A stretch of 64,000 nt of DNA from an uncultured Pseudomonadota bacterium (GCA_963770835.1 CAVYRH010000004.1:704001-768000); one strand, 5' to 3'. Counted from the first letter of the stretch, positions 16,686 through 44,124 are shown. Numbers and translations are program-made. Notes: generated by a model from the letters alone, not told the origin.

Positions 16686-19600
16686 GTGGCCCGGCCGCTC
16701 TTTTTGGACGCCCTCAAGAAAAAAGTCCTCATCTTTGATGGGGCCATGGGCACCAATATCCAGGTTTATAACCTCACGAAAGAGGATTTCGGGGGCAAGG
16801 AGGGCCTGAACGACTACCTGGTCATCACCAAGCCCCAGGTCATCCGGGAGATCCACGAGGGGTTCCTCAAAGTGGGGGTCGACTGCCTGGAAACCAATAC
16901 CTTCGGCTCCAACCGCTTGAAACTGGAAGAGTACGGTATCGGCGACCAGATCGTGCAGGTCAACACCGCCGCCGTCAAGCTGGCGCGCGAATTGGCCGAT
17001 AAGTATTCCACCCCCGACCAACCCCGCTTCGTTGTCGGCTCCATGGGCCCCACGGGCATGCTTCCCGCCTCGGAAGACCCGGACCTGGGCAAGATCACCG
17101 TCGATGAATTGGAAGCCATTTATTATGAGCAGGCCTGCATCATGATCGACGCGGGCGTGGACGCGCTCCTGGTGGAAACCAGCCAGGACATCCTGGAAAT
17201 GCGCGCGGCGGTCTTCGGCTGCCACCGGGCGCGCACCGAGAAGAAATCACCCGTGGGGATCATGGCCCAGACCACGCTGGACACCACGGGCCGCATGCTG
17301 CTGGGCACGGACATCGGTTCGGTGCTTTCCACCTTCTCGCGCCTTCCCATCGACGTACTCGGCATGAACTGTTCCACCGGCCCCAAGGAAATGAAGGACT
17401 CGGTGCGGTACCTGGGCCAATACTCGGGCATCCCCATCTCCACGATCCCCAACGCGGGCCTTCCCGAAAACCGGGGCGGCCAGGCGGTTTATCCGCTGAA
17501 ACCGGAGGCCCTGGCGGCGGCGCTGAAGGAATTCGTCGAGGAGTTCGGCGTCAACGTGGTGGGGGGCTGCTGCGGCACCACCCATGAGCACCTGCGCCAA
17601 GTGGTCCAGGCCATCGGCCACCGGGCGCCCAAGAAGCGGGACGTGACCCACCTTTGCAACGTTTCCTCGATGATCAAGGCCGTGGACATGGACCAGGACC
17701 CCAAGCCGCTGATCGTGGGTGAGCGCGTCAATTCCCAAGGCTCCCGCAAGATCAAGCAGATGCTTTTGGCGGACGACTACGAGGGCATGGTGGCGGTCGG
17801 GCGGGGCCAGGCCGAGGGCGGGGCCCATGTGCTGGACGTCTGCGTTGCCTTGACCGAACGGCCCGACGAGAAGGACCAGATGAAGGCGGTCGTCAAAAAG
17901 CTGGCCCTGGGGGTGGATACGCCGGTCATGATCGACAGCACCGAGGCGGACGTCATTGAGGCGGCCCTGAAAATTTACCCGGGCCGGGCGATGGTGAATT
18001 CCATCAACCTGGAAGGGGACGGCTCCCGCGTGAAGCGGGTCTGCCCTTTGATCAAAAAATACGGCGCCACGGTCGTGGCCATGACCATCGACGACCTCTA
18101 TTACGACAAGTCCAAACCCGCGGAAAAGGGCATGGCGAAAACCGCCGCCCGGAAGCTGGAAGTGGCCAAGAAGATCACGGATATCTGCGTGAACGAATAC
18201 GGCATTCCCGCCGAGGACATCGTCTTCGACGCCCTCACCTTTACCCTGGCCACCGGCGAGGCGGAATTCCTGAACTCCGCCGTCGAGACCATGGAAGGCA
18301 TCAAGGCGATCAAGAAGGAAATCCCGGGCGTGCGCACCGTGTTGGGCTTGTCCAACGTGTCCTTCGGGCTTTCCAAGCAGGCGCGCGAAGTGCTCAATTC
18401 CGTCTTCCTTTACCATTGCGTGCACGCGGGGCTGGATATGGCCATCCTGAACCCGGCGGATATCAAGCCCTACGCTTCCATCGCCGGGGACGAGCGCAAG
18501 CTGGCCGACGATCTGGTCTTCAACCGCGACCCCCAGGCCCTGGCCCATTTCATCCAGCATTTCGCGGGCAAGGCCCCCGTGGAGGCCCAAGGCGCCGCCG
18601 ACCCGACGGAAGGCATGACCTTCGCCCAGAAGGTCCATTGGAAGATCGTCAACCGCAAGCCCGACAAGATCGAGGCGGACCTGGCCGAGGTGATGAAGGA
18701 AAAAACCGCCGTCGAGACCCTCAATACCGTCCTCCTTCCCGCCATGAAGGAAGTGGGGGACAAGTTCGGTTCCGGTGAATTGATATTGCCTTTCGTGCTG
18801 CAATCCGCCGAGGTCATGAAGCGGGCCGTGGCCTATGTGGAACAGTTCCTGGACAAGTCCACCGCCACCACCAAGGGCACGGTGGTGCTGGCCACCGTTT
18901 ACGGCGACGTGCACGACATCGGCAAGAACCTGGTGAGGACCATCCTTTCCAACAACGGCTACACGGTTTACGACCTGGGCAAGCAGGTGCCCGTTTCCAC
19001 CATCATCGCCAAGGCGCAGGAAGTGAAGGCCGACGCCATCGGCCTTTCGGCCCTCCTGGTGGTCACCAGCAAGCAGATGCCCATCTGCGTACAGGAACTG
19101 GAAAAGATGGGCCTCCAATATCCCGTGGTGGTTGGGGGCGCCGCCATCAACCGCCGCTATGGCTACCGCATCAGCTTCGTGGATGAGAAGCTTTACGAAC
19201 CCGGCGTTTATTACGCCAAGGATGCCTTCGAGGGGCTCGATATCCTGAACGCCCTGTCGGACCTAGCCAGTCGGGAAACCTTCCGGAACAAGGTGAAGGA
19301 AGAAGCCCTCAACTCCAAGGCCGTCGGGTTCGCCGACGCCAAGGTGGAAGAGGGGGAAGCCACGCCGGAAAAATACCCGCCCACGGTCAAACCGGCCCTG
19401 ACCATCCCGAAGAATCCCTTCGCGGGAACCTCCATTATCAACAAGGTGCCTTTAAGGGAAATCTGGCCCTATTTGGACCTGACCCAGCTTTACAAGCTCA
19501 ATTGGGGGGTCAAGGGCAAGGATTCGGAAGAGTATAAGCACCTCATCCAGACCCAGTTCGAGCCCATGCGCCTGAAGATGCAGGACGAGATTTTGGCCAA

Positions 19601-20159
19601 GAACTGGTTCGAGCCCAAGCTGGTTTATGGCTTCTGGTTGGCCAACTCGGAAGGCAACGACCTTATTATTTACGACGGCAACAACCCCAAGAAGGAACTG
19701 GAACGCTTCAAGTTCCCCCGCCAGCGCGTCGGTCGGCATTTGTGCCTGTCCGATTACTTCAAGCCGGTTGCCTCCGGCGAGAAGGACGTCGTGGCTTTCC
19801 AAGTCGTTACTATCGGCGATAAGGCCACGGAAATCATCGAGAAGTTGAACAAAGACGGAAAATACACCGATTCCTATTATTTACACGGTTTGGCCGTGCA
19901 GACCGCCGAAGCCATGGCGGAATGGATTCACCGCCGAATCCGCAAAGAATGGGACCTGCCCATCGGGCAAGGGAAGCGCTATTCGCCCGGCTATCCCGCC
20001 TGCCCCGAGCAATCGGACCAGGAAAAGTATTTCCGGCTCCTGGACGCCACCAAAGCCATCGGCATCACCCTCACGGAAGCCCACATGATGGTGCCCGAGC
20101 AGTCCACCAGCGCCATTGTCATCCACCACCCCGAATGCGAGTATTTCGCGGTGCGTTGA
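16686..20159 (+). CDS. metH: Cobalamin-dependent methionine synthase
   Basis: DGAMGT, GGCCGT, pterin-binding domain, GDVHDIGKN B12 motif, RYSPGYPACP activation domain. Confidence 0.97.
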   Translation: MARPLFLDALKKKVLIFDGAMGTNIQVYNLTKEDFGGKEGLNDYLVITKPQVIREIHEGFLKVGVDCLETNTFGSNRLKLEEYGIGDQIVQVNTAAVKLARELADKYSTPDQPRFVVGSMGPTGMLPASEDPDLGKITVDELEAIYYEQACIMIDAGVDALLVETSQDILEMRAAVFGCHRARTEKKSPVGIMAQTTLDTTGRMLLGTDIGSVLSTFSRLPIDVLGMNCSTGPKEMKDSVRYLGQYSGIPISTIPNAGLPENRGGQAVYPLKPEALAAALKEFVEEFGVNVVGGCCGTTHEHLRQVVQAIGHRAPKKRDVTHLCNVSSMIKAVDMDQDPKPLIVGERVNSQGSRKIKQMLLADDYEGMVAVGRGQAEGGAHVLDVCVALTERPDEKDQMKAVVKKLALGVDTPVMIDSTEADVIEAALKIYPGRAMVNSINLEGDGSRVKRVCPLIKKYGATVVAMTIDDLYYDKSKPAEKGMAKTAARKLEVAKKITDICVNEYGIPAEDIVFDALTFTLATGEAEFLNSAVETMEGIKAIKKEIPGVRTVLGLSNVSFGLSKQAREVLNSVFLYHCVHAGLDMAILNPADIKPYASIAGDERKLADDLVFNRDPQALAHFIQHFAGKAPVEAQGAADPTEGMTFAQKVHWKIVNRKPDKIEADLAEVMKEKTAVETLNTVLLPAMKEVGDKFGSGELILPFVLQSAEVMKRAVAYVEQFLDKSTATTKGTVVLATVYGDVHDIGKNLVRTILSNNGYTVYDLGKQVPVSTIIAKAQEVKADAIGLSALLVVTSKQMPICVQELEKMGLQYPVVVGGAAINRRYGYRISFVDEKLYEPGVYYAKDAFEGLDILNALSDLASRETFRNKVKEEALNSKAVGFADAKVEEGEATPEKYPPTVKPALTIPKNPFAGTSIINKVPLREIWPYLDLTQLYKLNWGVKGKDSEEYKHLIQTQFEPMRLKMQDEILAKNWFEPKLVYGFWLANSEGNDLIIYDGNNPKKELERFKFPRQRVGRHLCLSDYFKPVASGEKDVVAFQVVTIGDKATEIIEKLNKDGKYTDSYYLHGLAVQTAEAMAEWIHRRIRKEWDLPIGQGKRYSPGYPACPEQSDQEKYFRLLDATKAIGITLTEAHMMVPEQSTSAIVIHHPECEYFAVR

Positions 20160-20187
20160 AAAGCTCTTGACCGGAATATACCGAAAG

Positions 20188-20204
20188 GATATCTTTGTGA
20201 TATC
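20188..20204. promoter_or_regulatory. Putative TA autoregulatory operator
   Basis: GATATC-tttgt-GATATC palindrome downstream of TTGACC, upstream of the antitoxin. Confidence 0.45.
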
Positions 20205-20224
20205 TCTTTTGGGAGGTTTCCGCC

Positions 20225-20443
20225 ATGTCCAGCATGCTGATCAAAAATATTCCTGAGGAAATCAAGAAAAAGCTCAAGGAACAGGCCGAGCTTAACCACC
20301 GGTCCGTGAATAAACAGGTGGTGTCAATCCTGGAACAAGCGGTCGCTAAACCTGGAATCTCCGCTCTTCCCCCGCCGCTCAAATTGAAATTCCGCCCCAC
20401 GGACGCATGGCTGAACAAGGCCAAACGCTGGGGTCGTCTTTGA
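20225..20443 (+). CDS. Arc/FitA-like ribbon-helix-helix antitoxin
   Basis: MLIKNIPEEIKKKLKEQAELNHRSVN RHH pattern; overlaps the PIN gene. Confidence 0.85.
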   Translation: MSSMLIKNIPEEIKKKLKEQAELNHRSVNKQVVSILEQAVAKPGISALPPPLKLKFRPTDAWLNKAKRWGRL

Positions 20444-20841
20444 TTATCGTCGACGCGAATATCCTGGTTTACCGGATTGTGGAAGGCCAAAAGACCCTGA
20501 TGGCTTTGGCGGTCCAAGAGATGGACCCGGATTGGAAAGTCTCCCCTCTTTGGAAATATGAATTTGGAAATGCCTTGGCTTTAATGATTCATCAAGGGCA
20601 TTTGACGGCCAAAGTGGCCGCTCAATTGTTGGAAACCGGCTTAAAGGCTTTTGAATCCTGTGAAGTACAGGCTGATCCTGATTTGGCGCTTTCCCTGTCG
20701 GTCGAAAAGAAAATAAGCTTTTATGACGCGCAATACTTGGCCCTTGCGAAGTCACTGGGAGTTCCACTGGTGACGGAAGACAAGGGGCTTCGCCGGGTAG
20801 GGACGGGAATGGCAGTCAGCATGGAAGAATTCCTGAATTAA
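20440..20841 (+). CDS. vapC: VapC-family PIN toxin
   Basis: IIVDANIL, SFYDAQYLALA, LVTED; TTG start overlaps the antitoxin stop. Confidence 0.88.
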   Translation: MIIVDANILVYRIVEGQKTLMALAVQEMDPDWKVSPLWKYEFGNALALMIHQGHLTAKVAAQLLETGLKAFESCEVQADPDLALSLSVEKKISFYDAQYLALAKSLGVPLVTEDKGLRRVGTGMAVSMEEFLN

Positions 20842-20870
20842 TGAACCAAGGAACGAAGAATTTATAGCTT

Positions 20871-20990
20871 CTGGACGCCACCAAGGGCATCGGCATCACG
20901 CTGACGGAGGCCCACATGATGGTGCCAGAACAATCCACCAGCACCATCGTTATCCACCACCCCGAGTGCGAGTATTTTGCGGTAAGATAG
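20871..20990 (+). repeat. metH 3'-end copy 1 (displaced tail)
   Basis: 102/120 nt identical to 20040-20159; encodes LDATKGIGITLTEAHMMVPEQSTSTIVIHHPECEYFAVR*. Confidence 0.95.
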
Positions 20991-21032
20991 GCCCCTGTAA
21001 GCCGGGTTTTTGTATTTTAAGGGGAGGAATTT

Positions 21033-23045
21033 ATGAAAAGTTCGCTTTGTTTATTGGGAAAAGTTTTTTCAACCTTGTTTTTCTTTCTGGCCGCCGTTCA
21101 TCCCGGTTTTGCCGACGATTCGGCCAACAGCCTCAATCCTGAAACCCAATACACTCTTCCCTCGGGCGCGAGCTTCAATGTCCCCAAGGGTTGGGATGTC
21201 CAAGCAAAAGGCGGAAGCTTCATTCTCCACGATCCCGAACACCTCGTGACACTTGTGCTCACTGAGAACGAGGAGATAAGCCCCCAGGACGCGCTTCAGA
21301 AAGCGTGGAAAAGTTATAATCCCGATTTCTCCTATGCTGTTGCCACGCATGAATTTCCCAAGAGGGATAAGTGGGACCAGGTTTGCCGGCAATGGTATTT
21401 CGTGCCGAGCGAGCAAGATCCCTATAAAGCCAATGACACCCGGGGGCTTTATGCGTTTGCGGGGAAAAAGGACGACCGTTGGTATGTAGCCTTGATGGAT
21501 TACGACAAAGTCTCCGCGGACAAACGCCAAGCCCAAGTTGAAGTCATCATCGGCAGTTTAAAAATTCCCGGCGCAAAACCCACGCCGACGCCCGCCCAAG
21601 ACGTTCAAATGGACGACAAGTTCTTCAAGACCTTCGAGGATTTCCTGGAACACGCCCGGAATGACTGTAAAGTGCCCGGGGCGGCGGTGGCCATTGTGAA
21701 GGACGGGAAGATCGTTTACGAGAAGGGTTTCGGGGTCTGTGAGAAGGGCAAAAAGGACCCAGTGACGACGAAAACCTTGTTTTCCATCTCCGGCATCACC
21801 GTGCCCCTGACGACACTTTTGATGGCCCGGCTGGTGGACGCGGGGAAAATGAGCTGGGACACCCCCGTCACCCAGCTTTTGCCCGGGTTTCAATTGGGCG
21901 ACCCGAAAACGACGTCGGAACTTACCTTGAAATACACGGTTTGCGCCTGCGCGGGGCTGGCCCGCCAGGACCCCGTACTGGTTTTCCCCACCGGTTACAG
22001 CAGCCCCGAAACGGTCATTGAAAAGATGCTCGCCATTATGCCTACCGCCGGATTCGGGGAAATTTTCCAATCGAGCAACATCCTGGTGGCGACCGGCGGT
22101 TTCGCCGCGGCCCACGCCCTCCATCCGGACCTGCCGCTGGGCCAAGCCTACGCCGCCGCCATGAAGGAATATGTTTTCGACCCCCTGGGAATGGCGGACA
22201 CCACCCTGGATTTCCAATCGGTCGCCGCCAAGGAGCATGGGACTCCCCATTGCTACGTCCGGGATTATGATTACGACACCGTACCCTTGGCTTATGACGA
22301 CTGGACCCTCCCCGTGGCCCCCGCGGTCGGCGCCTGGTCCAACGTCGAGGATATGTCCAAATACCTCCTGCTGGAACTCAACAAAGGCATAGGGCCGGAT
22401 GGAACCCGTGTTGTTTCCGAAGCCAACCTCCTAAAGCGCCGTGAGCCCCACGTGAAAATCAACGAGGATTCCGATTACGGCCTGGGATTGAAAGTTTCGA
22501 ACGACAAGGGAATCACGGTAGTGGGCCAGGGCGGAATTTCCACGGGTTACACTTCCGACATGGTTTTCATGCCGGACCGGAATATGGGGATGGTTTTGCT
22601 GACGAACGCCGACTACGCGGGATATTTCCGTGGCGCCGTTTACCAGAAGCTGATGGAGCTTATTTCCGGAAGGGAGGCCCACGCCCAAGAGAATCTTGAC
22701 TCTGAATTGAGCACCCGGAGGAAGCAAGGACAAATACTAGCGGATTGGGCGAACAGCCAGATGTCCCAGTCTTGGTTTTATGATTTCGTGGGGACTTACT
22801 TTAACGAAGACCTCGGTGCCGTCTCCCTCAAAATGACCAATGAGGGTGGAATTTTCGACGCAGGCAAATGGAAGACTCACGTGGCGGGTACTGCCGGGCG
22901 TAATGGGGAAACCAAGTTCTACCTTACGGATCCCCCCATCATCTGGTCGCAGTTTATTTTGAACGATCAGGACGGGCACAAGACCATGACCTACAAGACG
23001 TCCCAAAAGGACTATGTCTTCGAATGGGTTTCCAAAAACCAGTAA
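21033..23045 (+). CDS. Exported beta-lactamase/serine-hydrolase-fold protein, catalytic motifs degenerate
   Basis: VPGAAVAIVKDG, DPLGM; SxxK position reads ISGITV, YxN position reads QSSN. Confidence 0.8.
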   Translation: MKSSLCLLGKVFSTLFFFLAAVHPGFADDSANSLNPETQYTLPSGASFNVPKGWDVQAKGGSFILHDPEHLVTLVLTENEEISPQDALQKAWKSYNPDFSYAVATHEFPKRDKWDQVCRQWYFVPSEQDPYKANDTRGLYAFAGKKDDRWYVALMDYDKVSADKRQAQVEVIIGSLKIPGAKPTPTPAQDVQMDDKFFKTFEDFLEHARNDCKVPGAAVAIVKDGKIVYEKGFGVCEKGKKDPVTTKTLFSISGITVPLTTLLMARLVDAGKMSWDTPVTQLLPGFQLGDPKTTSELTLKYTVCACAGLARQDPVLVFPTGYSSPETVIEKMLAIMPTAGFGEIFQSSNILVATGGFAAAHALHPDLPLGQAYAAAMKEYVFDPLGMADTTLDFQSVAAKEHGTPHCYVRDYDYDTVPLAYDDWTLPVAPAVGAWSNVEDMSKYLLLELNKGIGPDGTRVVSEANLLKRREPHVKINEDSDYGLGLKVSNDKGITVVGQGGISTGYTSDMVFMPDRNMGMVLLTNADYAGYFRGAVYQKLMELISGREAHAQENLDSELSTRRKQGQILADWANSQMSQSWFYDFVGTYFNEDLGAVSLKMTNEGGIFDAGKWKTHVAGTAGRNGETKFYLTDPPIIWSQFILNDQDGHKTMTYKTSQKDYVFEWVSKNQ

Positions 23046-23069
23046 TTCGGGTCGAATCGGGTTTGATAA

Positions 23070-23150
23070 GCCTTCATAATATTGCCGGAATAATCCACCA
23101 GCGCCATTGTCATCCGCTACCCCGAAAGCGAGTATTTCGCGGCGAGGTAA
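23070..23150 (+). repeat. metH 3'-end copy 2 (degenerate)
   Basis: AFIILPE*STSAIVIRYPESEYFAAR* aligns without gaps to AHMMVPEQSTSAIVIHHPECEYFAVR*. Confidence 0.9.
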
Positions 23151-23174
23151 AAGCTTCAGGAAAAGGAGTTTTGC

Positions 23175-24017
23175 ATGAAGAAGATCGCTTTATCTTTTGC
23201 GCTCGTTTTTCTGGGAGTTTCCAGCGGTTATGCCGCCACCGATAAGGACACGGTCGATTTTTTAAACAAACTCAATGGCCATTACTATTGTTTGATGCGG
23301 GAAGGGCTCCTGGATTTCCAGGCGGGGATCAAGTGCTCTTTTTTTGATGATTATTTAAAACAATGCTCGGCGAAATACGGTCCCGATGATAAGAGGGTCC
23401 AGGAACTCAAAAAGATTAAATTTGTCCTTTCCTGTTCGGGGAAGAATGAGTTTTCCTTTGAGGCCGCTTACGCTGAACCAAGCGGCGACCCGGCTTTCGA
23501 CGAAATCGTTCAAAAAATGATTGGGGTCGTGAAGGGGGCTTTTCAGCAAAACATTTTCCCTTGGCGCTCGAATGTCTTGGAGCCCGTCTTCGGGGCGGAC
23601 GATTACGCGAAATTCGACCTGCAAGTGGAGAAAAAAGACGGCGGATTCGTCATCTATTCCACGGGGGACCAGCCCGTCAGCGAGTACGCCGATAACCAAT
23701 GGAGAATTTACGAAATTGAGGCGGGCGGCAAGGCGAACGTCCAATCCTGCAAGCTCAAATATATGGATACCTCCAAGGGGATGATCTTATCCGAAACCAC
23801 CTCTGAGCTGCCCCAAGTGTCCACCGAGATAAATGCAAAGATGGAGTACCGGTCGGTGGATGGGTTCATGATGCCCAAAAGAATGTTGGTGCACATGAAG
23901 AAAACCGGGGACTCCGGCACCACTAACCTCGATGTGATTTTTGAATTTGTGGATTATCGGATTGATAAAGGCCAGGCGGAAACGAAGCCAACCGATCAAA
24001 CCGAAACGGGATTTTAG
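23175..24017 (+). CDS. Secreted hypothetical protein
   Basis: AAGGAG RBS, MKK signal peptide ending GYA, 280 aa. Confidence 0.75.
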   Translation: MKKIALSFALVFLGVSSGYAATDKDTVDFLNKLNGHYYCLMREGLLDFQAGIKCSFFDDYLKQCSAKYGPDDKRVQELKKIKFVLSCSGKNEFSFEAAYAEPSGDPAFDEIVQKMIGVVKGAFQQNIFPWRSNVLEPVFGADDYAKFDLQVEKKDGGFVIYSTGDQPVSEYADNQWRIYEIEAGGKANVQSCKLKYMDTSKGMILSETTSELPQVSTEINAKMEYRSVDGFMMPKRMLVHMKKTGDSGTTNLDVIFEFVDYRIDKGQAETKPTDQTETGF

Positions 24018-24036
24018 CGATAGCCTTGAGATTTTA

Positions 24037-24086
24037 GGCGCCATCGGCATTCACGAACTGAAAGCAAGTATTTTGCAGTGAGATAA
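24037..24086 (+). repeat. metH 3'-end copy 3 (most degenerate)
   Basis: ggc gcc atc ggc att cac gaa ct- gaa agc aag tat ttt gca gtg aga taa, ending YFAVR*. Confidence 0.75.
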
Positions 24087-24091
24087 GAAGG

Positions 24092-25123
24092 TTGAAATTG
24101 AAAAGATATTTAATACTGGCTCTTATATCCTTGCTTTTCACTTCCGCAAACGCCCAATCCATCAATCCCGTTCATTTTGGATACATCAAGTGGGATAAGG
24201 ACAAGCCGATTGTCCGGTTGGAAATGAATCTTGCACCCTCTATTACGGAAAAAGATCCTGGGGATTTATACGAGCTATTTATAAAAATATTTTTGGAAAA
24301 AGATTTATCCAAACCGGTTTCCGGGATTTACAACTGGCCCAACGAGAAGGATAGGCGTAATCCCCGCACAAAGTTGAAAGAAACACAGCTAACCGAAAGC
24401 CAATTTAAAAGTTTGGCGACTGAGAAAATCGGGGATGTTTATACCCTGGTTAGCCCCGGAGGAATTTGGCAAGCCAAGGTAACGGGTGGAACGATAGCGA
24501 TCGATGAACAATTTGATGATTTGTTCCGGGTTTATTTGGATTTGGAAATCGATCATTTTAAGCCCCCCATTGAAACGGCGGGAAAATCGAGGGTTGAAAC
24601 TGTAGGATTCGTTGGAAGTCATACGGTGAGCAATTTAAAGAGTTATGAGCAAGTATCCCTTGGACAAGACCAACAAATGGGCATTGAAAAACTTTTACGG
24701 GCCAAAATAAAAAAAGGGTTTAATGATTATTATTTTAACTATTTTCGAAACGGCCCGGATTTGATGGTTGTGGCCGACAATGTTGCCGTGGATGGATCTG
24801 AAAAGAAATATGAAGGAGATTACGAAGAAGTTGCCAAGTTCCAATCGGCGGTCTATTTACTCAGGGATGGACAGCTTCTGGATATTTTTCCAGCCAAAGT
24901 GGCCCGTAATAATGAGGTCGATACGCCTTCTTCTTACAAAGCTTTGTATCGGTTTGAAGTTGATGGCGAGAAATATGAATGTATCGAGGAAGATGGGCAA
25001 TCTTGCTGTACCGGGGGACCTTTTTCGCAGTATCACGTTTTTAAATTTAACCCCAAAACGACTTCTTTTAAAGAGATCGGAGAAAGTCGGGATTATCCAC
25101 TTTGCATGGAGTTGTTTCTTTAA
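24092..25123 (+). CDS. Secreted hypothetical protein, AT-rich
   Basis: Signal peptide ending ANA, 343 aa; visibly lower GC than metH. Confidence 0.7.
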   Translation: MKLKRYLILALISLLFTSANAQSINPVHFGYIKWDKDKPIVRLEMNLAPSITEKDPGDLYELFIKIFLEKDLSKPVSGIYNWPNEKDRRNPRTKLKETQLTESQFKSLATEKIGDVYTLVSPGGIWQAKVTGGTIAIDEQFDDLFRVYLDLEIDHFKPPIETAGKSRVETVGFVGSHTVSNLKSYEQVSLGQDQQMGIEKLLRAKIKKGFNDYYFNYFRNGPDLMVVADNVAVDGSEKKYEGDYEEVAKFQSAVYLLRDGQLLDIFPAKVARNNEVDTPSSYKALYRFEVDGEKYECIEEDGQSCCTGGPFSQYHVFKFNPKTTSFKEIGESRDYPLCMELFL

Positions 25124-25209
25124 CCAATGCCCACATGATGGTGCCCGTACAATCCACCAGCGCCATCGTTATCCATAATCCGGATTGCGAATGCTTCGCG
25201 ATTAGATAA
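25120..25209 (+). repeat. metH 3'-end copy 4
   Basis: LTNAHMMVPVQSTSAIVIHNPDCECFAIR*; overlaps the stop codon of the preceding gene. Confidence 0.92.
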
Positions 25210-25777
25210 TTTTCTGCCGACCTAAAATTTAGATGGCATGTATTTTTTATTAACATTAATTATTTTTTTCAAATTCGATTGAACAATTTTTTAATTCAAA
25301 CCAAGTTAAGGATGCTTTTTTTATTTCACCGAAAACAGACATGATTTCTCCACGTTGGGAAAATTTGAGTTTTGGACATGAACTTATATTCACATCAAAA
25401 TTTATCATAGGATAATTGAAGGTATTTCCGATTTCAGAGGCAACAACAGTAACCATTCCTTCTTTGAGAGCGGAGGAAACAGAATGAAGTCGGACCTTCC
25501 AAGCAATTTTAAAGTTTTTGTATTCTTCACTCATTTTTTCTTGTTGATACGGCGGTAATTTATTCAATTGTTTTGAAATTTCCGTTGGGGTTGGATCAGT
25601 ATGGTATGAATTTTTTTGATCGAGTTTACTTTTTTCAATCATGACAACAGGAGATTCGGGATTTGATGTTTTTGGTTTTTGATTAGTGGAAGGCGCAGAA
25701 TTGTAATTGTTTTGAATTATTACATTCGCATTATTTTGTTGGTTCGAAGAGCCGGGAGAATTTTCATTATTTAAATT

Positions 25778-26948
25778 GTAACCTCTGAAAAACTCCTTCG
25801 TCTAAATGCTGAAATATAATAGCAGCATTCCAGACGGAGGGATTCCATGCAAATCAGCTTCGGGATGTACGAGGACAAGAACCGGCGACTCAAAAAGACC
25901 ATGCTAGAGGAAGTGGATAAGGTTCTGGACTTTCCGAAGATCGAGAAATTGCTGATGGAAATGTACCGGGGCAACACGGGGAGACCTCCCATCCCGCCTT
26001 TGATCTTGTTTAAATGCCTTTTGCTGGAATCCTGGTACGGCCTGTCGGATGTGGAAGTAGTCCAAGAAATCCACGACCGGCGCAGTTTTGAGCGGTTCGT
26101 GGGTGAAGGGGTGCGAGAGTACCACGTCGACGACACCACTTTGGTGAAGTTTCGGGAAAGACTCCGGGAAGCCGGTTTGATAGACCGGGTTTGGGGGGCC
26201 GTGCAACAGGGTTTAGATCGCAAAGGACTTTTGGTCAAGAAAGGGGCCATTGTGGACTCCACCCTGGTGGAAGGAGCCTGTAAACCGGAATCCAAGGATC
26301 AAGAGGGAAAGCCGGTGGATGAAGATGTTCATTACACCTCCCGGCAAGGAAAAGCCGTGGATGGGATGAAGGTTCATGTGGGTCAGGACGAGAAAAGCGG
26401 CCTGATTCGAAAGATGGATCTAAGTCATATTGAGGAACACGATCACGAACATTTCAAAGACATGGTTCCTCGCGGGGTAGAACAGGCATTTGCTGACAAG
26501 GCTTACCGGTCGGCGCAACACGATGAATATTTGGAGGAACGAGGGATTCGGAATCGAGTGTTACATCGTGTTTGGCGGGGACAGAAGCTGACCCAGAGGC
26601 AATTAAAGCAAAACAAGGTTTGGGGCCGTGTGAGGTGCGGGATCGAGGCGACAATGAGTACCTTGAAGCGGTGGTGTTCGATGGGACGAATGAGGTACTA
26701 CGGGATGGCCCGAAACAAGATTTGGGTGTTGATCTGTGGCATCGCATTTAATGGGAAAAGAGCCGTAAAGTTGGCGGCGGCCTGAGCTAAGGGGAGTTTT
26801 TTCAGAGGCAGATGACGCAAGAAGGGTCGAAAAAGGAGTTCTAGGAGTAAGTGCAACACCTTTGGAGAAACAAAAACATCTCCAAGCGGGGTTGAAAACC
26901 CTGGTGAGAAGAGTTTCAAACCAAAACAGGGAGTTTTTCAGAGGTTAC
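25778..26948 (+). mobile_element. IS5-family insertion sequence, 1171 bp
   Basis: Perfect 19-bp terminal inverted repeats GTAACCTCTGAAAAACTCC / GGAGTTTTTCAGAGGTTAC, flanked by AAATT direct repeats. Confidence 0.92.
25847..26785 (+). CDS. IS5-family DDE transposase
   Basis: GRPP, WYGLSD, DDTTLVKFR, IVDST, ADKAY, RCGIE. Confidence 0.92.
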   Translation: MQISFGMYEDKNRRLKKTMLEEVDKVLDFPKIEKLLMEMYRGNTGRPPIPPLILFKCLLLESWYGLSDVEVVQEIHDRRSFERFVGEGVREYHVDDTTLVKFRERLREAGLIDRVWGAVQQGLDRKGLLVKKGAIVDSTLVEGACKPESKDQEGKPVDEDVHYTSRQGKAVDGMKVHVGQDEKSGLIRKMDLSHIEEHDHEHFKDMVPRGVEQAFADKAYRSAQHDEYLEERGIRNRVLHRVWRGQKLTQRQLKQNKVWGRVRCGIEATMSTLKRWCSMGRMRYYGMARNKIWVLICGIAFNGKRAVKLAAA

Positions 26949-27181
26949 AAATTATTATTTTGCTTTTTGGGTTTTCCCTGTAAGAAATAGACGAGAACTG
27001 CAACGCCGACTCCAGAGAATATCCAAGGAATGTTATTTTTTAGAATCTGAATCAAAGAGATTTTATCCATTGATTTGATCGTACAAGTTAGCTCTTTATT
27101 AAATCAAGCGAAAAAGCCTGGTGAAAGGTCTGGACATGAAAAAGAATTTTAGCCAGTTAGCTTTCAACGGGACCTCCAGAC

Positions 27182-27253
27182 TTAAACTATTTTATTCTTC
27201 CTCATCCAAAGAATCGCGCCCATGTGATCGCGGCCATACCAAGCGTTGGCGTC
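27182..27253 (-). repeat. Degenerate copy of the yfiT-like 3' end
   Basis: DANAWYGRDHMGAILWMRKNKIV* aligns without gaps to GTYAWHGRHHTGQILWMRESKRV*. Confidence 0.85.
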
Positions 27254-27702
27254 TAGCCTTTAAGGACCTTCTTCAAAAGATCTTTAAAGCCCAAAAACAG
27301 TGACGTCTTAGAAGGCTTCCGCCCTGGTTCTGGGATGGCCGCCATAGGCGGTTGTTGGGAGAGTTCATTTGTTTGGCTGGGGACGGGGGCCTTTGGGGCC
27401 AAATCCTCCGGGGTGGCGACGCGGTAGCGGATGCTCCTTCCGCCCCCCATCCGTATGATCCTTTTTGTCTTTAAGAGCCGCATCAGGGTATAAGTGAGCG
27501 TGCTACGGGCCCAGCCAAATTCCTTAGCCATCTCGCTGGGAACGGCCTCCCCCCGCTGTTTGATGAACTCCACGAGTTTATCCAGTTCCCAGTGACTCCT
27601 ATATCCACCCCTTTTCTGGGATTGCCGCGTTGGTTTTGGGGCCGGTTCCTGCCCTCTTGCGGTGGAATTTGCGGCCTGGTCATCCGGAAGAGTGAAAGTC
27701 AT
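27253..27702 (-). CDS. Winged-HTH DNA-binding protein
   Basis: PSEMAKEFGWARSTLTYTLMRL...GGGRSIRY; AAGGAG RBS. Confidence 0.75.
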   Translation of the reverse strand: MTFTLPDDQAANSTARGQEPAPKPTRQSQKRGGYRSHWELDKLVEFIKQRGEAVPSEMAKEFGWARSTLTYTLMRLLKTKRIIRMGGGRSIRYRVATPEDLAPKAPVPSQTNELSQQPPMAAIPEPGRKPSKTSLFLGFKDLLKKVLKG

Positions 27703-27712
27703 AAGCGCTCCT

Positions 27713-27866
27713 TATTCTGCCAATAATATGCGCAGCGCATATTATTGGCAGAATAGGCGGGTTCAAAAACGGGTTGGTGCCCAAGATTTAGAATTAATCT
27801 GCCAATAATATCAGCCGCTGATATTATTGGCAGAATAGCCGGGTTGAAATCAAGAGATTGCCCAAA
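27713..27866. repeat. Two tandem ~82-bp units, each with a long perfect palindrome
   Basis: 21-bp arms at 27713-27755 and 18-bp arms at 27798-27834; shared TCTGCCAATAATAT. Confidence 0.9.
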
Positions 27867-28382
27867 TTAAAGCTTTTTGTTTTCCCTCATCCAAAGAACC
27901 TGGCCTGTGTGGTGGAGGCCATGCCAGGCATAGGTGCCCAAAGCCGTTGAAAGCTTGGTGGCCTGGTTGTTCCGGGGGTTGATATAGGCCCGGGCGAACT
28001 CTTCCTCCGTCATGGACCGCATCAACTGCGCCCATTGGCGATGAAGCCCCTCGAGCAAGCCCAAGGGCCCCTCGACCGGCCCCGTTTTTGATTCCACCAA
28101 ATCCACCAATTTATTCCTGTCGTAACCCTTCGTCACCGGCTGTTCCTCGGTCAGCGCCAATTTAAAGTTGACGTAGCCAAACGTATGGCTATCCGCCAAG
28201 TGGTGGACGATCTGGCGGATGGTCCAGTTCTTATACTTCGTGTCCAGTTGGGCGTCCGAGAGGCCCGCCACGGCTTCCCGGAGGGCTTGGGGGGCCTTTT
28301 CGATAATGGCGATCAATTCTTTTATGGGCGGGTTTTCTTCCGTATTTGGGTTGGGTCCGACGGGGTAATCAGGGGCTTCCAT
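27867..28382 (-). CDS. YfiT/DinB-family metal-dependent thiol transferase, copy 2
   Basis: WTIRQIVHHLADSH, YAWHGLHH; start MEAPDYP set by homology with copy 1. Confidence 0.9.
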   Translation of the reverse strand: MEAPDYPVGPNPNTEENPPIKELIAIIEKAPQALREAVAGLSDAQLDTKYKNWTIRQIVHHLADSHTFGYVNFKLALTEEQPVTKGYDRNKLVDLVESKTGPVEGPLGLLEGLHRQWAQLMRSMTEEEFARAYINPRNNQATKLSTALGTYAWHGLHHTGQVLWMRENKKL

Positions 28383-28447
28383 GGTTTTCTCCTCGGTTTT
28401 GGGATTGGAAGGCTTATAGTAAGCCAAAATTTAATGGAGGTTTCAAT

Positions 28448-29017
28448 ATGTTCAGCAAGTATGCCGCCTTCATAACGGTCCTGTTCCTAGCTTATTCCAT
28501 TTGCGGAGCCCAAACGGTCCAACCTACCACCGCCCCGGCGCCTGCGGCGGGGAAACGCAAGCCCATCACCATGGAATGGGGGGGCCTGAACGGTATTCAT
28601 TATTACTATGCGGGGTACAAAGCCGATGGGGTGGAGGGATTATCGGGCATCATCACATCCCTGCATGACCCCGAGGCCACCCGGCTGGTCGCCGCCGCCC
28701 GGAATGACGAAAATACGGGGGGGCTTTTCACGGTGGGGGGGCTGGTTTTCCTCGCCGCCGGGGCCATCGTTGTGGGTACGGACCCCAATTCCCAAAAGAC
28801 CACCCAAGACATCGACGGACGGCAAGCGGCGGGCTTGGGGATGAGCCTGGCCGGTTTGGTGGGAGGGGTTTTCGGCCTGCTCAACCTGGATGATGCCAAG
28901 GCCGACGAGTTCAACGCGGTCCAGCGTTACAACGCCGTCGTGCGGGGGGAGGACGAAACCTCCTGGAACCTTCCCGATCCCGGGCTGCGGACAAAGCTTC
29001 TGACTTTGAAGTTCTAG
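28448..29017 (+). CDS. Exported/membrane hypothetical protein, paralog A
   Basis: GGAGG RBS; similar to 30532-31098 (KRKPI, LxDPEA, AVQRYNA, WNLP..LLTLKF). Confidence 0.75.
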   Translation: MFSKYAAFITVLFLAYSICGAQTVQPTTAPAPAAGKRKPITMEWGGLNGIHYYYAGYKADGVEGLSGIITSLHDPEATRLVAAARNDENTGGLFTVGGLVFLAAGAIVVGTDPNSQKTTQDIDGRQAAGLGMSLAGLVGGVFGLLNLDDAKADEFNAVQRYNAVVRGEDETSWNLPDPGLRTKLLTLKF

Positions 29018-29122: not shown

Positions 29123-29638
29123 TTAAACTCGCTTGCTTTCCCGCATCCATAGGATCTGCCCCGTGTGGTGGCGGCCATGCCAGGCATAGGTGCCTACGGC
29201 GCTTTTCAGGGTGATCACCCGGTTGCGGTCGGGATGGATGAAGGCGCGGTTGAATTGCTCCTCCGTCATGGACCGCAATAACTGCACCCACTGCTTGTGA
29301 ATCCCCTCTATCATGGCCAGGGGGCCGTCAATAGGCCCCGTTTTCGATTCCTCCAAGTCCGACCACTTCCCATCGTCATAAGCCTTGATGACCGGCTGGT
29401 CCTCGGTGAGCGCCCATTTGAACCGGATGTAGCTGTTGGCGTGGCTGTCCGCCAAGTGGTGGACGATCTGGCGGATAGTCCAGTTCTTATACTTCGTGTC
29501 CAATTGGGCGTCCGACAGACCCCCGACGGCCTCCCGAAGGGCATGGGGGGCTTCTTCAATAATGGCGATCAATTCTTTCCGGGGCGGATTTTCTTCCTCT
29601 TTCAGGTTCGGGCCAACGGGGAATTGGGGCGCTTCCAT
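29123..29638 (-). CDS. YfiT/DinB-family metal-dependent thiol transferase, copy 1
   Basis: WTIRQIVHHLADSH, YAWHGRHH. Confidence 0.9.
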   Translation of the reverse strand: MEAPQFPVGPNLKEEENPPRKELIAIIEEAPHALREAVGGLSDAQLDTKYKNWTIRQIVHHLADSHANSYIRFKWALTEDQPVIKAYDDGKWSDLEESKTGPIDGPLAMIEGIHKQWVQLLRSMTEEQFNRAFIHPDRNRVITLKSAVGTYAWHGRHHTGQILWMRESKRV

Positions 29639-41109: not shown

Positions 41110-44100
41110 TCACTCCAGGATCAAAAGTTTCAAGACCGACCGCTTGCCATTGACCGTGATCAGGACGTAATAAAGGCCGTTGGCCAGTGGTTTGCCATCC
41201 TTATCTTTCAAGAGAATATCCAGTTTGTCGGTTCCGGCGGGTTCGGGAAGGGTGATGTTCAGAACCTCGCGGAAGGAAAGGGTGAAGATTTGCACGTGGA
41301 CGCTTCCGGCAGTGGAAAGATTGACCAGGAGGGTCACCGAACCGCCGGTGACGGGGTTGGGATAGAGCACGGGCGTGGAAGAGGACCCAGGCGTAGCGCT
41401 GACCGATGCCAAGGGGGTCGGGGAAGTCTGGGGCGTGGCCGTTGAGGAAGCCATGGGAGAGGGTGTCCAAGTGGGTGAAGGCGTCAGGGTGCGGGTAAAG
41501 GTCAAGGACACCGTCGGGGATGTGGTGAAAGTGGGGCTGAGGGTGGCGGTGGAAGTCGGGGTCCGGGTAGGTGTGAAAGGAGCCGTCCCGGTGGATGTCG
41601 GGGAGGCTGTGGGGGTCGTTGTGAGGGTTGAGGTGGGGACCAAGGTTGGCGTCTCAGTCCGCGTTGCAGTTCCCGTGGCGGTTAAGGTGGCCGAATTGGT
41701 CGGCGTGGAGGTCGCCGTGAAGCTGTTTACGGGCGTGTTGGTGGTAGTCGCACTGGCCGTGGAAGTGGGACTGTTGGTTGAAGTGGAGGTCCGGGTCGGC
41801 GTGGAGCTGGCCGTTGAGGTAGAAGTAACCGTAGAAGTGAAGGTAAAACTGGGTGTGGAGGTATTAGTGGAAGTGGCCGTCAAGGTCGCCGTGCGGGTCA
41901 TCGTACCAGTCGCCGAATTAGTAGGAGTGGAGGTTGCCGTAAAGCTGTTCACCGGCGTGTCCGTAGCGGTTCCCGAGGCGGTGGAAGTGGCGGTCCGAGT
42001 CGGAGTGGACGATGGTGTGGAAGTCGAGGTGGGTGTAGAAGTCGTTGTCGGGCTGGCCGTTTTAGTGGGTGTGGAAGAAGCTGTGGAGGTCGGAGTGCCG
42101 GTTGGCGTAAACGAGAAGGTGGGGGTCCCAGTGGTGGTGGCCGAGGCCGTTGCTGAGGAAGTACTGGTGGACATGGGTGTGAAAGTCGCCGTCAGCGTGG
42201 GCGTGGAGGTGGCGGGCAGGGAGGCTGTGGCCGTAGGGGTGCGGCTGGCCGTAGCAGTGGGAGAAGTGGTGGAAGTTGAACTGGGGGTTCCGGTGGGTGA
42301 GGCCGTTGCTGAGGAAGTGCTGGTGGACGTGGGTGTCAAAGTCGCCGTCCGCGTAGGTGTCGAGGTGGCCGTAGGAGAGGCCGTGGTTGTTGGGGTGGAG
42401 GTGGGGGTGCGGCTTGCCGTGGAAGTGGGTGTGGCCGTCACGGCCGGGGTTCCGGTGGGCGTGGAAGTGGAGGAAGTGGTTAAGAGGCCGTAAACCACCA
42501 GGCTGCTGGAAGTGGGCACGTAAACCTTGCCGTTCACCACGCTGGGTAGTTCAAACTTGACATAGGCGGCCGTAGCCGTGTCGCGGGCGGAATTCTGGCC
42601 ACTGTTATAGAGCATCGTGGCCAGGTTGGTGGCGTCATAGGCAAAGAGGGTGACCGGGGTTCCAGGATACAGGGCCCACACGATACCGTTAGTGTTTCCG
42701 TTGGAGGAAACGCTTGGGACACAACCGGTGGAAAACGACCCGGCCGCGCCGTAGATGGCCGCCGTCGCAGAGGAAGGAGTCGTCACATATTGGCCATTGG
42801 CGAAGGTGAAGGCTTTCAGGGCCTCGCCCGACATACCCCAATAGACCCAGTTCGTTGTGCCATTACTATAAATGGCTGGCGAGGTATAGCCCTTTCCCCC
42901 AATGGAATAGACAGTTTGGATGATATTGTTGGCGGTGGAACTGAACTCGCCCATCTTGCCCGTGTCCGCGTCCACCACGTATAGGTCGCTCGGCTTGTCC
43001 GCGCCGATGATGATGTTGGGATGGGCGGTGGTGCCCCAGGAGGCGGGCAGGAGGCACTGACCCGCCGAACCGACATCCTGGTCCCCGGAACTCATGGAAG
43101 CTTGGCTCATGGGAGCGAAGTAATCCAACGCCGTTACCGCATTTCCGACGGTGTTCAGTTTCAGGAAGCACTGCCCGTAATCGGAAACCGGCGCGGTTGT
43201 GTCGAAAGTGCCATTGGCGGAGAGATAATAGAGGTTTCCCGCCGAATCGACCGAAGGCCCATCACCCGATTCCCAGAAGGAGGATTCACTGCCGTTGGGG
43301 GCGGAACAATAGACGCTTAACTGTTGGGTGATGTTGGAGGCGCTGTAGCCGATGACCCAGCCGTAATAATTTCCCGCGATGCCGTCGTTATCGCAGTGGC
43401 CGGTCCAACTGGTATAAACCACCCCATTGACCAGCGCCAGGGCACACCTTTCCTTATAGGCCCTGGGCCGGAAGGTGACCGTGGTGCCCCCATCGCCCTT
43501 GCCGGGCGCGGTGGCCCCAATGGTCTGGGGGCCGTTGGCGGTCTCGGCACCGGTCGTGATATTAAGGGCGTGCAAGGTCTGGGTGTAGGTGGTGACCCCG
43601 CCGGAGACCGTCTTGGTCATGGCCACAAAGTACATAATGCCGGAGGTAGGGTCGATGACCGGGGTATCCGTGATTCCGATCTCGGGGGAGATCTGGGTAC
43701 AGTTCCCGACGTCAGCCAGGGATACGGGCATGGCGCCACCGGTGAGGAAACTGGTATGCCAGTAGGTAACCCCCGCAGAGTCGGCGTCAAAGGCATAGGC
43801 GCTGTCGTTTTCGGTAACTACGTAAGCCACATTGTGGGTGCCCCCGCCGATGCTGATGTTGGGCATGTAAAGGGGCTGGGCGTATACTTGGCCGTCCACC
43901 GTGTCCGAGAAAAGTTTTCCGAAATTGGTACTGTTGACGTTGGCGGTGGTGAGGATGGTTTCATTTTGGTTCCAACCATCGCGGGCTTGGTCGTTATGGT
44001 AAGTGGTCAGGGAGGTTTGGGCGAAAGCCTGCGAGGCCCCAAGGAAGGCCCATGGGAAAAGGAGGGCCGCCCAAAAGCTTGGACCTGGGGAAAAATTGGT

Positions 44101-44124
44101 ATAAGTAAAAGGAAACTTCTTCAA
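41110..44124 (-). CDS. Large secreted protein: PQQ-like beta-propeller, Thr/Ser/Pro linker, T9SS-like C-terminal domain
   Basis: TTYHNDQARDG, VDGQVYAQPL; ~370-aa TPT linker; LYPNP...ANGLYY...KLLIL. Confidence 0.8.
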   Translation of the reverse strand: MKKFPFTYTNFSPGPSFWAALLFPWAFLGASQAFAQTSLTTYHNDQARDGWNQNETILTTANVNSTNFGKLFSDTVDGQVYAQPLYMPNISIGGGTHNVAYVVTENDSAYAFDADSAGVTYWHTSFLTGGAMPVSLADVGNCTQISPEIGITDTPVIDPTSGIMYFVAMTKTVSGGVTTYTQTLHALNITTGAETANGPQTIGATAPGKGDGGTTVTFRPRAYKERCALALVNGVVYTSWTGHCDNDGIAGNYYGWVIGYSASNITQQLSVYCSAPNGSESSFWESGDGPSVDSAGNLYYLSANGTFDTTAPVSDYGQCFLKLNTVGNAVTALDYFAPMSQASMSSGDQDVGSAGQCLLPASWGTTAHPNIIIGADKPSDLYVVDADTGKMGEFSSTANNIIQTVYSIGGKGYTSPAIYSNGTTNWVYWGMSGEALKAFTFANGQYVTTPSSATAAIYGAAGSFSTGCVPSVSSNGNTNGIVWALYPGTPVTLFAYDATNLATMLYNSGQNSARDTATAAYVKFELPSVVNGKVYVPTSSSLVVYGLLTTSSTSTPTGTPAVTATPTSTASRTPTSTPTTTASPTATSTPTRTATLTPTSTSTSSATASPTGTPSSTSTTSPTATASRTPTATASLPATSTPTLTATFTPMSTSTSSATASATTTGTPTFSFTPTGTPTSTASSTPTKTASPTTTSTPTSTSTPSSTPTRTATSTASGTATDTPVNSFTATSTPTNSATGTMTRTATLTATSTNTSTPSFTFTSTVTSTSTASSTPTRTSTSTNSPTSTASATTTNTPVNSFTATSTPTNSATLTATGTATRTETPTLVPTSTLTTTPTASPTSTGTAPFTPTRTPTSTATLSPTFTTSPTVSLTFTRTLTPSPTWTPSPMASSTATPQTSPTPLASVSATPGSSSTPVLYPNPVTGGSVTLLVNLSTAGSVHVQIFTLSFREVLNITLPEPAGTDKLDILLKDKDGKPLANGLYYVLITVNGKRSVLKLLILE

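Follow-up and report, generated by a model that had tools for sequence, protein, structure and literature searches.

By what routes bacteria acquire genes at chromosomal hotspots without a mobile element is still an open question. In integrons, small co-oriented cargo genes, many of them toxin-antitoxin pairs, are each followed by a separator just past the stop codon, and the newest unit stands in front. Integrative elements that enter the 3′ ends of tRNA genes and other genes carry a copy of that end, which restores the gene while the old end is displaced downstream; they may accrete in tandem, and integrase-less forms, the cis-mobilizable elements (CIMEs), are known. The minimal mobile elements of Neisseria consist of cargo swapped by homologous recombination between two conserved flanking genes, and they are not known to leave a displaced gene end. 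For the orphan strings of rhs loci, Jackson et al. (2009, PMC2935791) propose as explanation the excision of a circle between direct repeats, followed by single-crossover insertion. The serial displacement in the effector-immunity arrays of the Vibrio cholerae type VI secretion system (T6SS) is attributed by Kirchberger et al. (2017, PMC5361080) to homology-facilitated illegitimate recombination (HFIR). In E. coli, 56 of 60 clones carried 109–950-bp duplications of the homologous end, formed through trimming, re-circularisation and a single crossover, and canonical HFIR is an insertion coupled to a deletion, not a duplication (PMC3240628). Here, we describe an array behind the methionine synthase gene metH in a 64,000-nucleotide (nt) stretch of DNA, hereafter the window, from an uncultured Pseudomonadota soil bacterium (GCA_963770835.1 CAVYRH010000004.1:704001-768000). 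In this array, displaced copies of the end of metH alternate with accessory genes.

The anchor gene is identified as metH by its Pfam domains S-methyl_trans, Pterin_bind, B12-binding and Met_synt_B12. On its 3′ side lie four copies of the metH tail, c1 to c4, each with its stop codon in register with that of metH, and these copies act as separators between four unrelated accessory cargo blocks (Table 1). By Pfam, the blocks comprise a FitA-like ribbon-helix-helix antitoxin with a PIN toxin, a beta-lactamase-family serine hydrolase, and two proteins without a Pfam match, whose signal peptides were judged by eye only. Alignment and Pfam searches thus agree with the layout that a first-pass annotation of the sequence had reported. 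The copies, which we call orphan tails, are 80–85% identical to the active tail. That is, c1 has 18 mismatches in 120 nt, with faint similarity extending left to about 20840; c2 has 16 in 81 nt, its left edge falling at 23068 or 23070; and c4 has 18 in its last 81 nt. The third copy, c3, is degenerate (nhmmer E 0.005 against the downstream set and 0.077 against the whole genome), and we accept it as real because a metagenome locus, L133, has a well-preserved 104-nt copy in the same place with the same gene in front. From the cargo stop to the copy the distance is about 29 nt for c1, 22–24 for c2, 19–20 for c3 and −4 for c4. A search of the 4.58-Mb genome found matches reaching the metH stop only in the metH array, which speaks strongly against the possibility, raised in the same annotation, that the tail is a dispersed repeat unlinked to metH.

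We propose that the metH repeats are former working ends of the gene, pushed downstream when RecA-type recombination brought in the tail of a related lineage together with cargo, with no integrase taking part; we would put the probability of this reading at roughly 70%. The state of the copies supports it. Copies c1, c2 and c4 represent different alleles, each closer to the metH tails of other genomes than to the active tail beside it, and the codon differences between c1 and the active tail are 14 synonymous to 2 non-synonymous. The latter ratio contradicts duplication followed by decay for c1, for which we estimate that under half of the changes would be synonymous. It upholds the earlier proposal that the gene end is replaced by an incoming tail with its cargo, while the old tail is sent downstream. 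Front units found pushed back in relatives are also in line with the earlier account. Over the copies of the source genome (G000), counted in the right-hand ungapped parts only, synonymous differences outnumber non-synonymous ones by 103 to 62, and the MetH C-terminus is conserved across relatives. The competing idea of a local duplication of the resident tail, either as a target-site or a tandem duplication that decayed with no foreign allele involved, draws on the orphans of G002, G010 and G041, which share diagnostic codons with the metH of their own lineage, and on some copies elsewhere that are 99–100% identical. The codon ratio of c1, the differing alleles of c1, c2 and c4, and the lack of a fixed length make it very unlikely for the array, although it could hold for single young copies. 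The own-lineage codons of the G002, G010 and G041 orphans are likewise what would be expected of a displaced resident end. A sliding-window search for nearest neighbours over the last 900 nt of metH was noisy, with six genomes out of register through indels, and was set aside.

The relatives are labelled candidate division FCPU426; 32 genomes of the order were searched, 27 of which have the metH end and at least 1 kb downstream. Orphans of metH occur in 7 of the 27: four in G000, two in G041, and one each in G001, G002, G004, G010 and G045. G007 has an orphan on a contig without an active metH (in the metH-tail profile and distance lists, the row for it, L024, is the one of 22 that is an orphan and not an active tail). 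Metagenome loci L133, L150 and a strain of the G041 type carry orphans as well. Over about 16 copies, the distance of the left edge from the stop varies between about 50 and 120 nt. What follows metH is unlike in most genomes, as a comparison of cargo across relatives had been expected to reveal, and several units are attached to the active gene in one genome and displaced in another, as follows. In L133, a HigBA-like pair (recognised by eye; the antitoxin has a helix-turn-helix match) and its promoter come after the active tail; in G004, they come after an orphan. The alignment of these two units runs through tail, stop and promoter. Cargo 3 lies directly behind the active metH in G020. In G000, G002, G010 and L145, the front position is taken by the vapBC pair, which follows an orphan in G045. 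A 60-amino-acid (aa) gene adjoins metH in G008, G014 and G024 and lies 2264 nt downstream in G041. The window and L133 have in common a block of hydrolase, c2 and cargo 3, in which c2 has eroded in L133 to a relic of about 25 nt; homologues of the hydrolase are found 3′ of metH in G021 as well as in L133. Judged from these alignments, the moving unit is a tail plus the cargo downstream of it. The first-pass annotation had taken each tail to close the cargo upstream; this must be turned around. Directly behind metH in G021 (locus L014) there is a set that resembles, by eye, a methyltransferase, a restriction endonuclease and a Vsr-like protein, and no orphan tail accompanies it.

Another possible origin is a homing-endonuclease gene that brings its own C-terminus for the target gene and cuts alleles not yet occupied, so that displaced tails remain, in the manner of an mORF or WHO-type drive. 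Elements of this kind yield the same geometry. The newest metH units, however, are toxin-antitoxin pairs or encode a lipoprotein-like or repeat protein, and neither the window cargo nor the other tail loci tested gave a match to an endonuclease family. Two of the window cargos belong to no family, which leaves a slight chance that a nuclease was lost. The one nuclease domain, GmrSD_N, is further downstream in G004, outside the front unit. We regard a homing drive as most improbable.

The orphans themselves appear to serve as recombination anchors. G041 and the metagenome locus L140 are 98% identical over 2658 nt, a segment with two cargo units and two orphans as well as the end of metH. At the second orphan, the left junction is common to both, 8 differences are found in the last 78 nt, unrelated cargo comes after, and the sequences rejoin in the 60-aa gene. 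In L140, the sequence of the second orphan looks like that of an intact MetH end, and this pair is most simply explained by a crossover inside the orphan with the active tail of a donor. The two also differ in short dense patches, with 14 differences within a 66-nt stretch of metH and 10 within 46 nt further up, which suggests that this lineage imports short diverged tracts. Refreshment of an orphan by such a crossover would also account for the better condition of c4 as compared with c3. Order in the array is therefore not simply a matter of age.

The pattern of displaced ends extends beyond metH. Genes were called genome-wide and a short orphan self-copy was sought within 15 kb of each of 3012 eligible genes. 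Fourteen had a tail downstream, six a head upstream, one a tail upstream and none a head downstream; the mid-gene matches (10 and 9) were mostly domains shared by neighbouring paralogues. The anchors include genes for a heavy-metal ATPase, ribonucleotide reductase, asparagine synthase, a rhomboid protein and pirin, as well as leuA, kdpC, addA, carB, marC and rsmA. Three of the 14 tail loci (a DEAD helicase gene, an lpd-like gene and one gene on contig C19) have no called open reading frame (ORF) in the gap, and two of the six head loci are doubtful, with matches of 44 nt and 31 nt. Toxin-antitoxin pairs make up the cargo at 6 of the 14 tail loci and at 2 of the 6 head loci. In relatives, 693 genes on 967 kb, chosen near metH or vapBC apart from 320 unselected kb of G004, gave 17 tail-downstream matches and zero other end matches. 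An outgroup control, covering 278 kb at 21 metH loci in other phyla, had no orphan among 180 genes, a sample too small to call the lineage unusual. This polarity is what would survive if an insertion must rebuild the gene that it enters. With at least a dozen other genes of the genome sharing the pattern, and several in relatives, the earlier view of metH as a dedicated site falls. One of these genes is a convergent dinB-family gene, 2–9 kb away, that faces metH in the window; its orphan tail indicates that the gap between metH and dinB fills from both sides. Orphans of dinB-family genes are also present in L002, L003 and L014.

Two loci of the same kind show further arrangements. Behind a methyltransferase gene of G004 (locus L078, 11177–11794, minus strand), three orphan tails lie 6.5–9.9 kb downstream, with an operon that looks efflux-like by eye and a toxin-antitoxin-like pair among them. 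In a recombination operon of the source genome (L039, region of C26:97559), a Phd-PIN pair is found between addB and addA, together with a displaced 5′ end of addA.

We suggest the following course of events. A new cargo-tail junction would arise once. Most simply, a donor fragment holding the last 50–150 nt of the gene plus cargo would be trimmed, circularised and inserted by a single crossover; alternatively, the far end of the donor would be joined illegitimately inside the tail. The 56 of 60 duplications among E. coli clones favour a one-time junction of this sort, followed by homologous spread and stacking. The survivors would be those products that rebuild the gene, leaving tails downstream and heads upstream, the pattern that the sequences display. 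The orphan would then be portable homology, so that blocks could be added, swapped and stacked through crossovers in orphans and shared neighbours, as the G041/L140 pair illustrates. Orphans erode by deletion to relics, like c2 in L133, or vanish. Toxin-antitoxin cargo is probably common since addiction would guard a block between direct repeats from loss.

The absence of an integrase, proposed in the first-pass annotation, is confirmed on the contig that holds the window (C4). Twelve tyrosine recombinases (PF00589) were matched genome-wide and none on C4; the sole resolvase of the genome, a serine recombinase, is on C17 and none is on C4; and none of 57 proteins tested at 17 other end-copy loci is a recombinase. 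These counts speak to the view that the units are decayed site-specific integrative elements, in which the tail would be an attachment-site duplication, the integrase was later deleted, and accretion was in tandem. The geometry is indeed like that of islands at the 3′ ends of tRNA and other genes, and several of the 12 tyrosine recombinases lie beside tRNA genes. The young units, however, are just 0.5–1.3 kb long and hold no relic of an integrase, the left edges of the metH copies are scattered rather than fixed (erosion could blur a fixed edge), and at least 14 unrelated anchors plus the 5′ heads would each need an enzyme of their own. We consider this origin unlikely.

A 28-bp palindromic site with an 11-6-11 layout has 76 matches, counting both strands; it is located on C3, C11, C12, C15, C16, C17 and other contigs of the source genome and at loci L046, L047, L050, L053 and L055. 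The site closes co-oriented cassettes, often toxin-antitoxin pairs, at a few to 60 nt past their stops. From its sequence, the array of these sites looks like a tyrosine-recombinase cassette system.

Such a system could in principle have made the metH array, if cassettes from the palindrome arrays were joined by their recombinase to secondary sites in gene ends and then spread by homology. The vapBC family found at metH is also a cassette between 28-bp sites in G023, G021 and other relatives; at L056, the left arm and spacer of a site are fused directly to the displaced tail of an ABC-ATPase gene; and cassette ends, 4–60 nt past stops, resemble orphan junctions. Against this, fusion to a tail is seen in just 1 of 26 half-sites, and a site match at just that one of the scanned junctions (with a matrix derived from one site and a plain match count). 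The window has no full 28-bp site. No right half-site was found at the metH stop. The closest homologues of the window's vapBC (64–69%) are at other loci, and those located at metH are 56–60% identical. We hold a cassette-recombinase origin to be improbable; the recombinase may supply cargo and sometimes a junction. It is tempting to go further and imagine an integrase-free capture in which any conserved gene could have cassettes, cut at or near stops and in some cases drawn from the 28-bp arrays, fused to its ends, with displaced ends as genome-wide portable landing pads that circulate toxin-antitoxin and secreted-protein genes between genera, but we regard this broader scheme as rather doubtful.

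The array does not look like a product of assembly. A Logan contig of sequencing run X1 covers 19907–22948 with 1 difference, a second X1 contig covers 24670–25649, and run X7, from a different study, has exact pieces at 23055–23281 and 23871–24111, covering c2 and c3. X1 is possibly the sample from which the genome came, and none of the pieces covers the array from end to end. What an assembly artefact or a dispersed repeat has in its favour is that the genome was binned from a metagenome and that the best run may be the source of that bin. The junctions are nevertheless bridged by contigs of two studies, the copies are 80–85% identical and found behind metH only, and orphans recur in independent genomes, so that such an artefact is extremely unlikely. 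One X7 contig matches the window from 21010 rightwards, with at least 255 unrelated letters on its upstream side; it may come from a strain in which this boundary holds a different unit or an insertion.

Genes for RecA, ComEC and DprA in the genome speak for recombination by homology as the source of the array; Ku was not found in this genome, which is 96% complete. Several observations weigh against it. Competence genes do not prove transformation. MutS and MutL are present, and these should hinder crossovers within 50–120 nt at 80–90% identity. The left halves of orphans were predicted to have decayed more than the right, and they had not (76 versus 70 changed codons, 484 each, p 0.65). No circle or excision junction appears in the contigs of public runs, contigs only having been searched. 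An X7 joint from 20005 to 25144 has just 26 letters on its short side and may belong to the metH of another organism. The L056 junction, in a relative, retains half of a recombinase-type site. Finally, junctions fall close to cargo stops: 23 of 36 are at most 45 nt away, versus 119 of 594 random positions (20%) and 153 of 500 intergenic ones (31%), with a binomial p of 4e-5 that is overstated as kin are not independent. This bias may come from deletion trimming of long-lived junctions, although such trimming would have been expected to give the left-side excess of decay that was not seen. Several cargo stop codons overlap tail sequence. The bias would also be accounted for by RNA-templated insertion, in which reverse transcription from a nick in the tail would copy a read-through transcript whose end lies near the cargo stop, and the far end would recombine upstream; an ORF near the copA orphan resembles, by eye, a group II intron reverse transcriptase. 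Such a route leaves the 5′ heads and the foreign alleles unexplained, unless RNA or cDNA is transferred between cells, and its likelihood is slight.

The features of the array and its surroundings are collected in Table 1. A sequence similar to the promoter-like one behind metH precedes the same genes in G002; promoter and terminator counts were not above those of shuffled sequence. For cargo 3, the Atlas gave a DUF3386-like lead with a score of 0.94, and for cargo 4 the best Atlas score was 0.83, a low recognition that offers no lead. The sole mobility gene near the array is that of the insertion sequence (IS) behind it, which reaches about 6–9 times the local depth in runs X1 and X2, and joints that skip the IS are found in X1 and X7.

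Table 1. Positions in the window of metH, its orphan tails and cargo, and the features between metH and the dinB-family anchor.
Feature	Position	Strand	Remark
metH, B12-dependent methionine synthase, anchor	16686–20159	+	active tail 20040–20159
sigma-70-like promoter match, probable vapBC promoter	20167–20195	+	consensus match only; 8 nt past metH stop
Cargo 1a, FitA-like ribbon-helix-helix antitoxin	20225–20443	+	PF22513
Cargo 1b, PIN-domain (VapC-type) toxin	20440–20841	+	PF01850
Orphan tail c1, 85% identical	20871–20990	+	14 synonymous and 2 non-synonymous codon differences
Cargo 2, beta-lactamase-family serine hydrolase, 670 aa	21033–23045	+	PF00144
Orphan tail c2, Phe allele of EAxMM motif	23068–23150	+	relic of about 25 nt in L133
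Cargo 3, 280 aa, without Pfam match	23175–24017	+	adjoins active metH in G020
Orphan tail c3, degenerate	24037–24086	+	nhmmer; supported by L133 copy
Cargo 4, 343 aa, without Pfam match, 41% G+C	24092–25123	+	
Orphan tail c4, overlaps cargo 4 stop codon	25120–25209	+	
AT-rich ORF behind c4, 128 aa, without Pfam match; older neighbour or cargo	25256–25642	−	
IS5-like element, DDE_Tnp_1 and DUF772, 25-nt inverted repeats	25772–26954	+	later passenger
Orphan 3′ tail of convergent dinB-family gene	27182–27255	−	
Cargo ORF between dinB paralogue and its orphan tail, without Pfam match	27253–27702	−	
Second full-length dinB-family copy	27867–28427	−	76% over 390 nt
Cargo ORF between two dinB-family copies, without Pfam match	28448–29017	+	
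dinB-family (DinB_2) gene, second anchor facing metH	29123–29638	−	

Some other repeats were seen. In the window, two 56-nt palindromic repeats, 86% identical, lie at 27712–27849 between the dinB paralogue and the next cargo ORF, and a 1004-aa ORF at 41110–44124 has a long repeat region of Thr/Ser/Pro type. Outside the window, the source genome has 25 near-invariant 37-bp CRISPR-repeat-like copies, spaced 0.15–29 kb apart by gene-bearing DNA, at C3:48634–102020, C3:383301–400905, C15:11472–15791 and C16:21525–37467. One of them is preceded by a Cas1 gene (PF01867) and an ORF that is Cas2-like by eye, and the same 70-nt upstream context occurs four times.

Displaced gene ends offer a readable, datable footprint of gene gain, from which direction, donor allele and order can be read. 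In this case, they also indicate that the scar is used again as an anchor for recombination between lineages 10–20% apart. Such events could be counted in any genome by a simple scan for genes with a copy of their own end behind them. We found no paper on orphan tails at metH or genome-wide at housekeeping genes, most subscription papers lying outside the search.

How, then, does the array compare with the systems outlined at the start? The annotation's term integron-like fits the layout and nothing beyond it. The separators are coding sequence of a host gene, metH, unlike those of integrons, and with no tyrosine recombinase on C4 there is no IntI. As with integrative elements, the gene is restored, the old end lies downstream and units stack; unlike them, the unit has no integrase, no crossover point is fixed, and targets are many (14 3′ ends and up to 6 5′ ends). 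By the features examined, the array is neither an integron nor an integrative element. The swap of cargo between conserved flanks in G041 and L140 is like that of Neisseria minimal mobile elements, apart from the displaced gene end that is left here. With HFIR and the end-duplicating crossover, the array shares one-sided homology and the lack of a dedicated enzyme. The deletion of canonical HFIR is not what is seen, the gene end being kept and duplicated, and deletion-type events would be invisible to the census. HFIR also goes with 3–10 bp of microhomology at the illegitimate junction and with a naturally competent host. The duplications of PMC3240628 arose in laboratory conjugation of E. coli at about 4 in a billion, in contrast to the natural arrays described here.

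The T6SS arrays likewise grow through repeated insertions at a conserved anchor that shift the older parts back; they too have been compared with integrons and lack an integrase. There, immunity genes persist and the old effector is for the most part replaced, whereas here a dead gene end is kept and the cargo is unrelated. There is a likeness in form to rhs C-terminal displacement: an intact gene followed by its own fragments of varying length, direct repeats, no integrase, and one unit attached in one strain and displaced in another (here, the HigBA-like pair, cargo 3 and vapBC). At rhs loci, what is swapped is a non-homologous toxin tip within one gene family. In contrast, the MetH end is conserved with cargo past the stop, and the anchors are many unrelated housekeeping genes, at 3′ and 5′ ends. 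With its conserved protein end and with housekeeping genes as anchors, the metH array works like rhs C-terminal displacement but is not a member of it. Both the geometry and the candidate mechanisms have already been described for rhs and T6SS loci; what is gained here is breadth and strain-level evidence, not a new enzyme class: a polarity census, pairs of attached and displaced units, a crossover mapped inside an orphan, and an unexplained bias of junctions toward stop codons.

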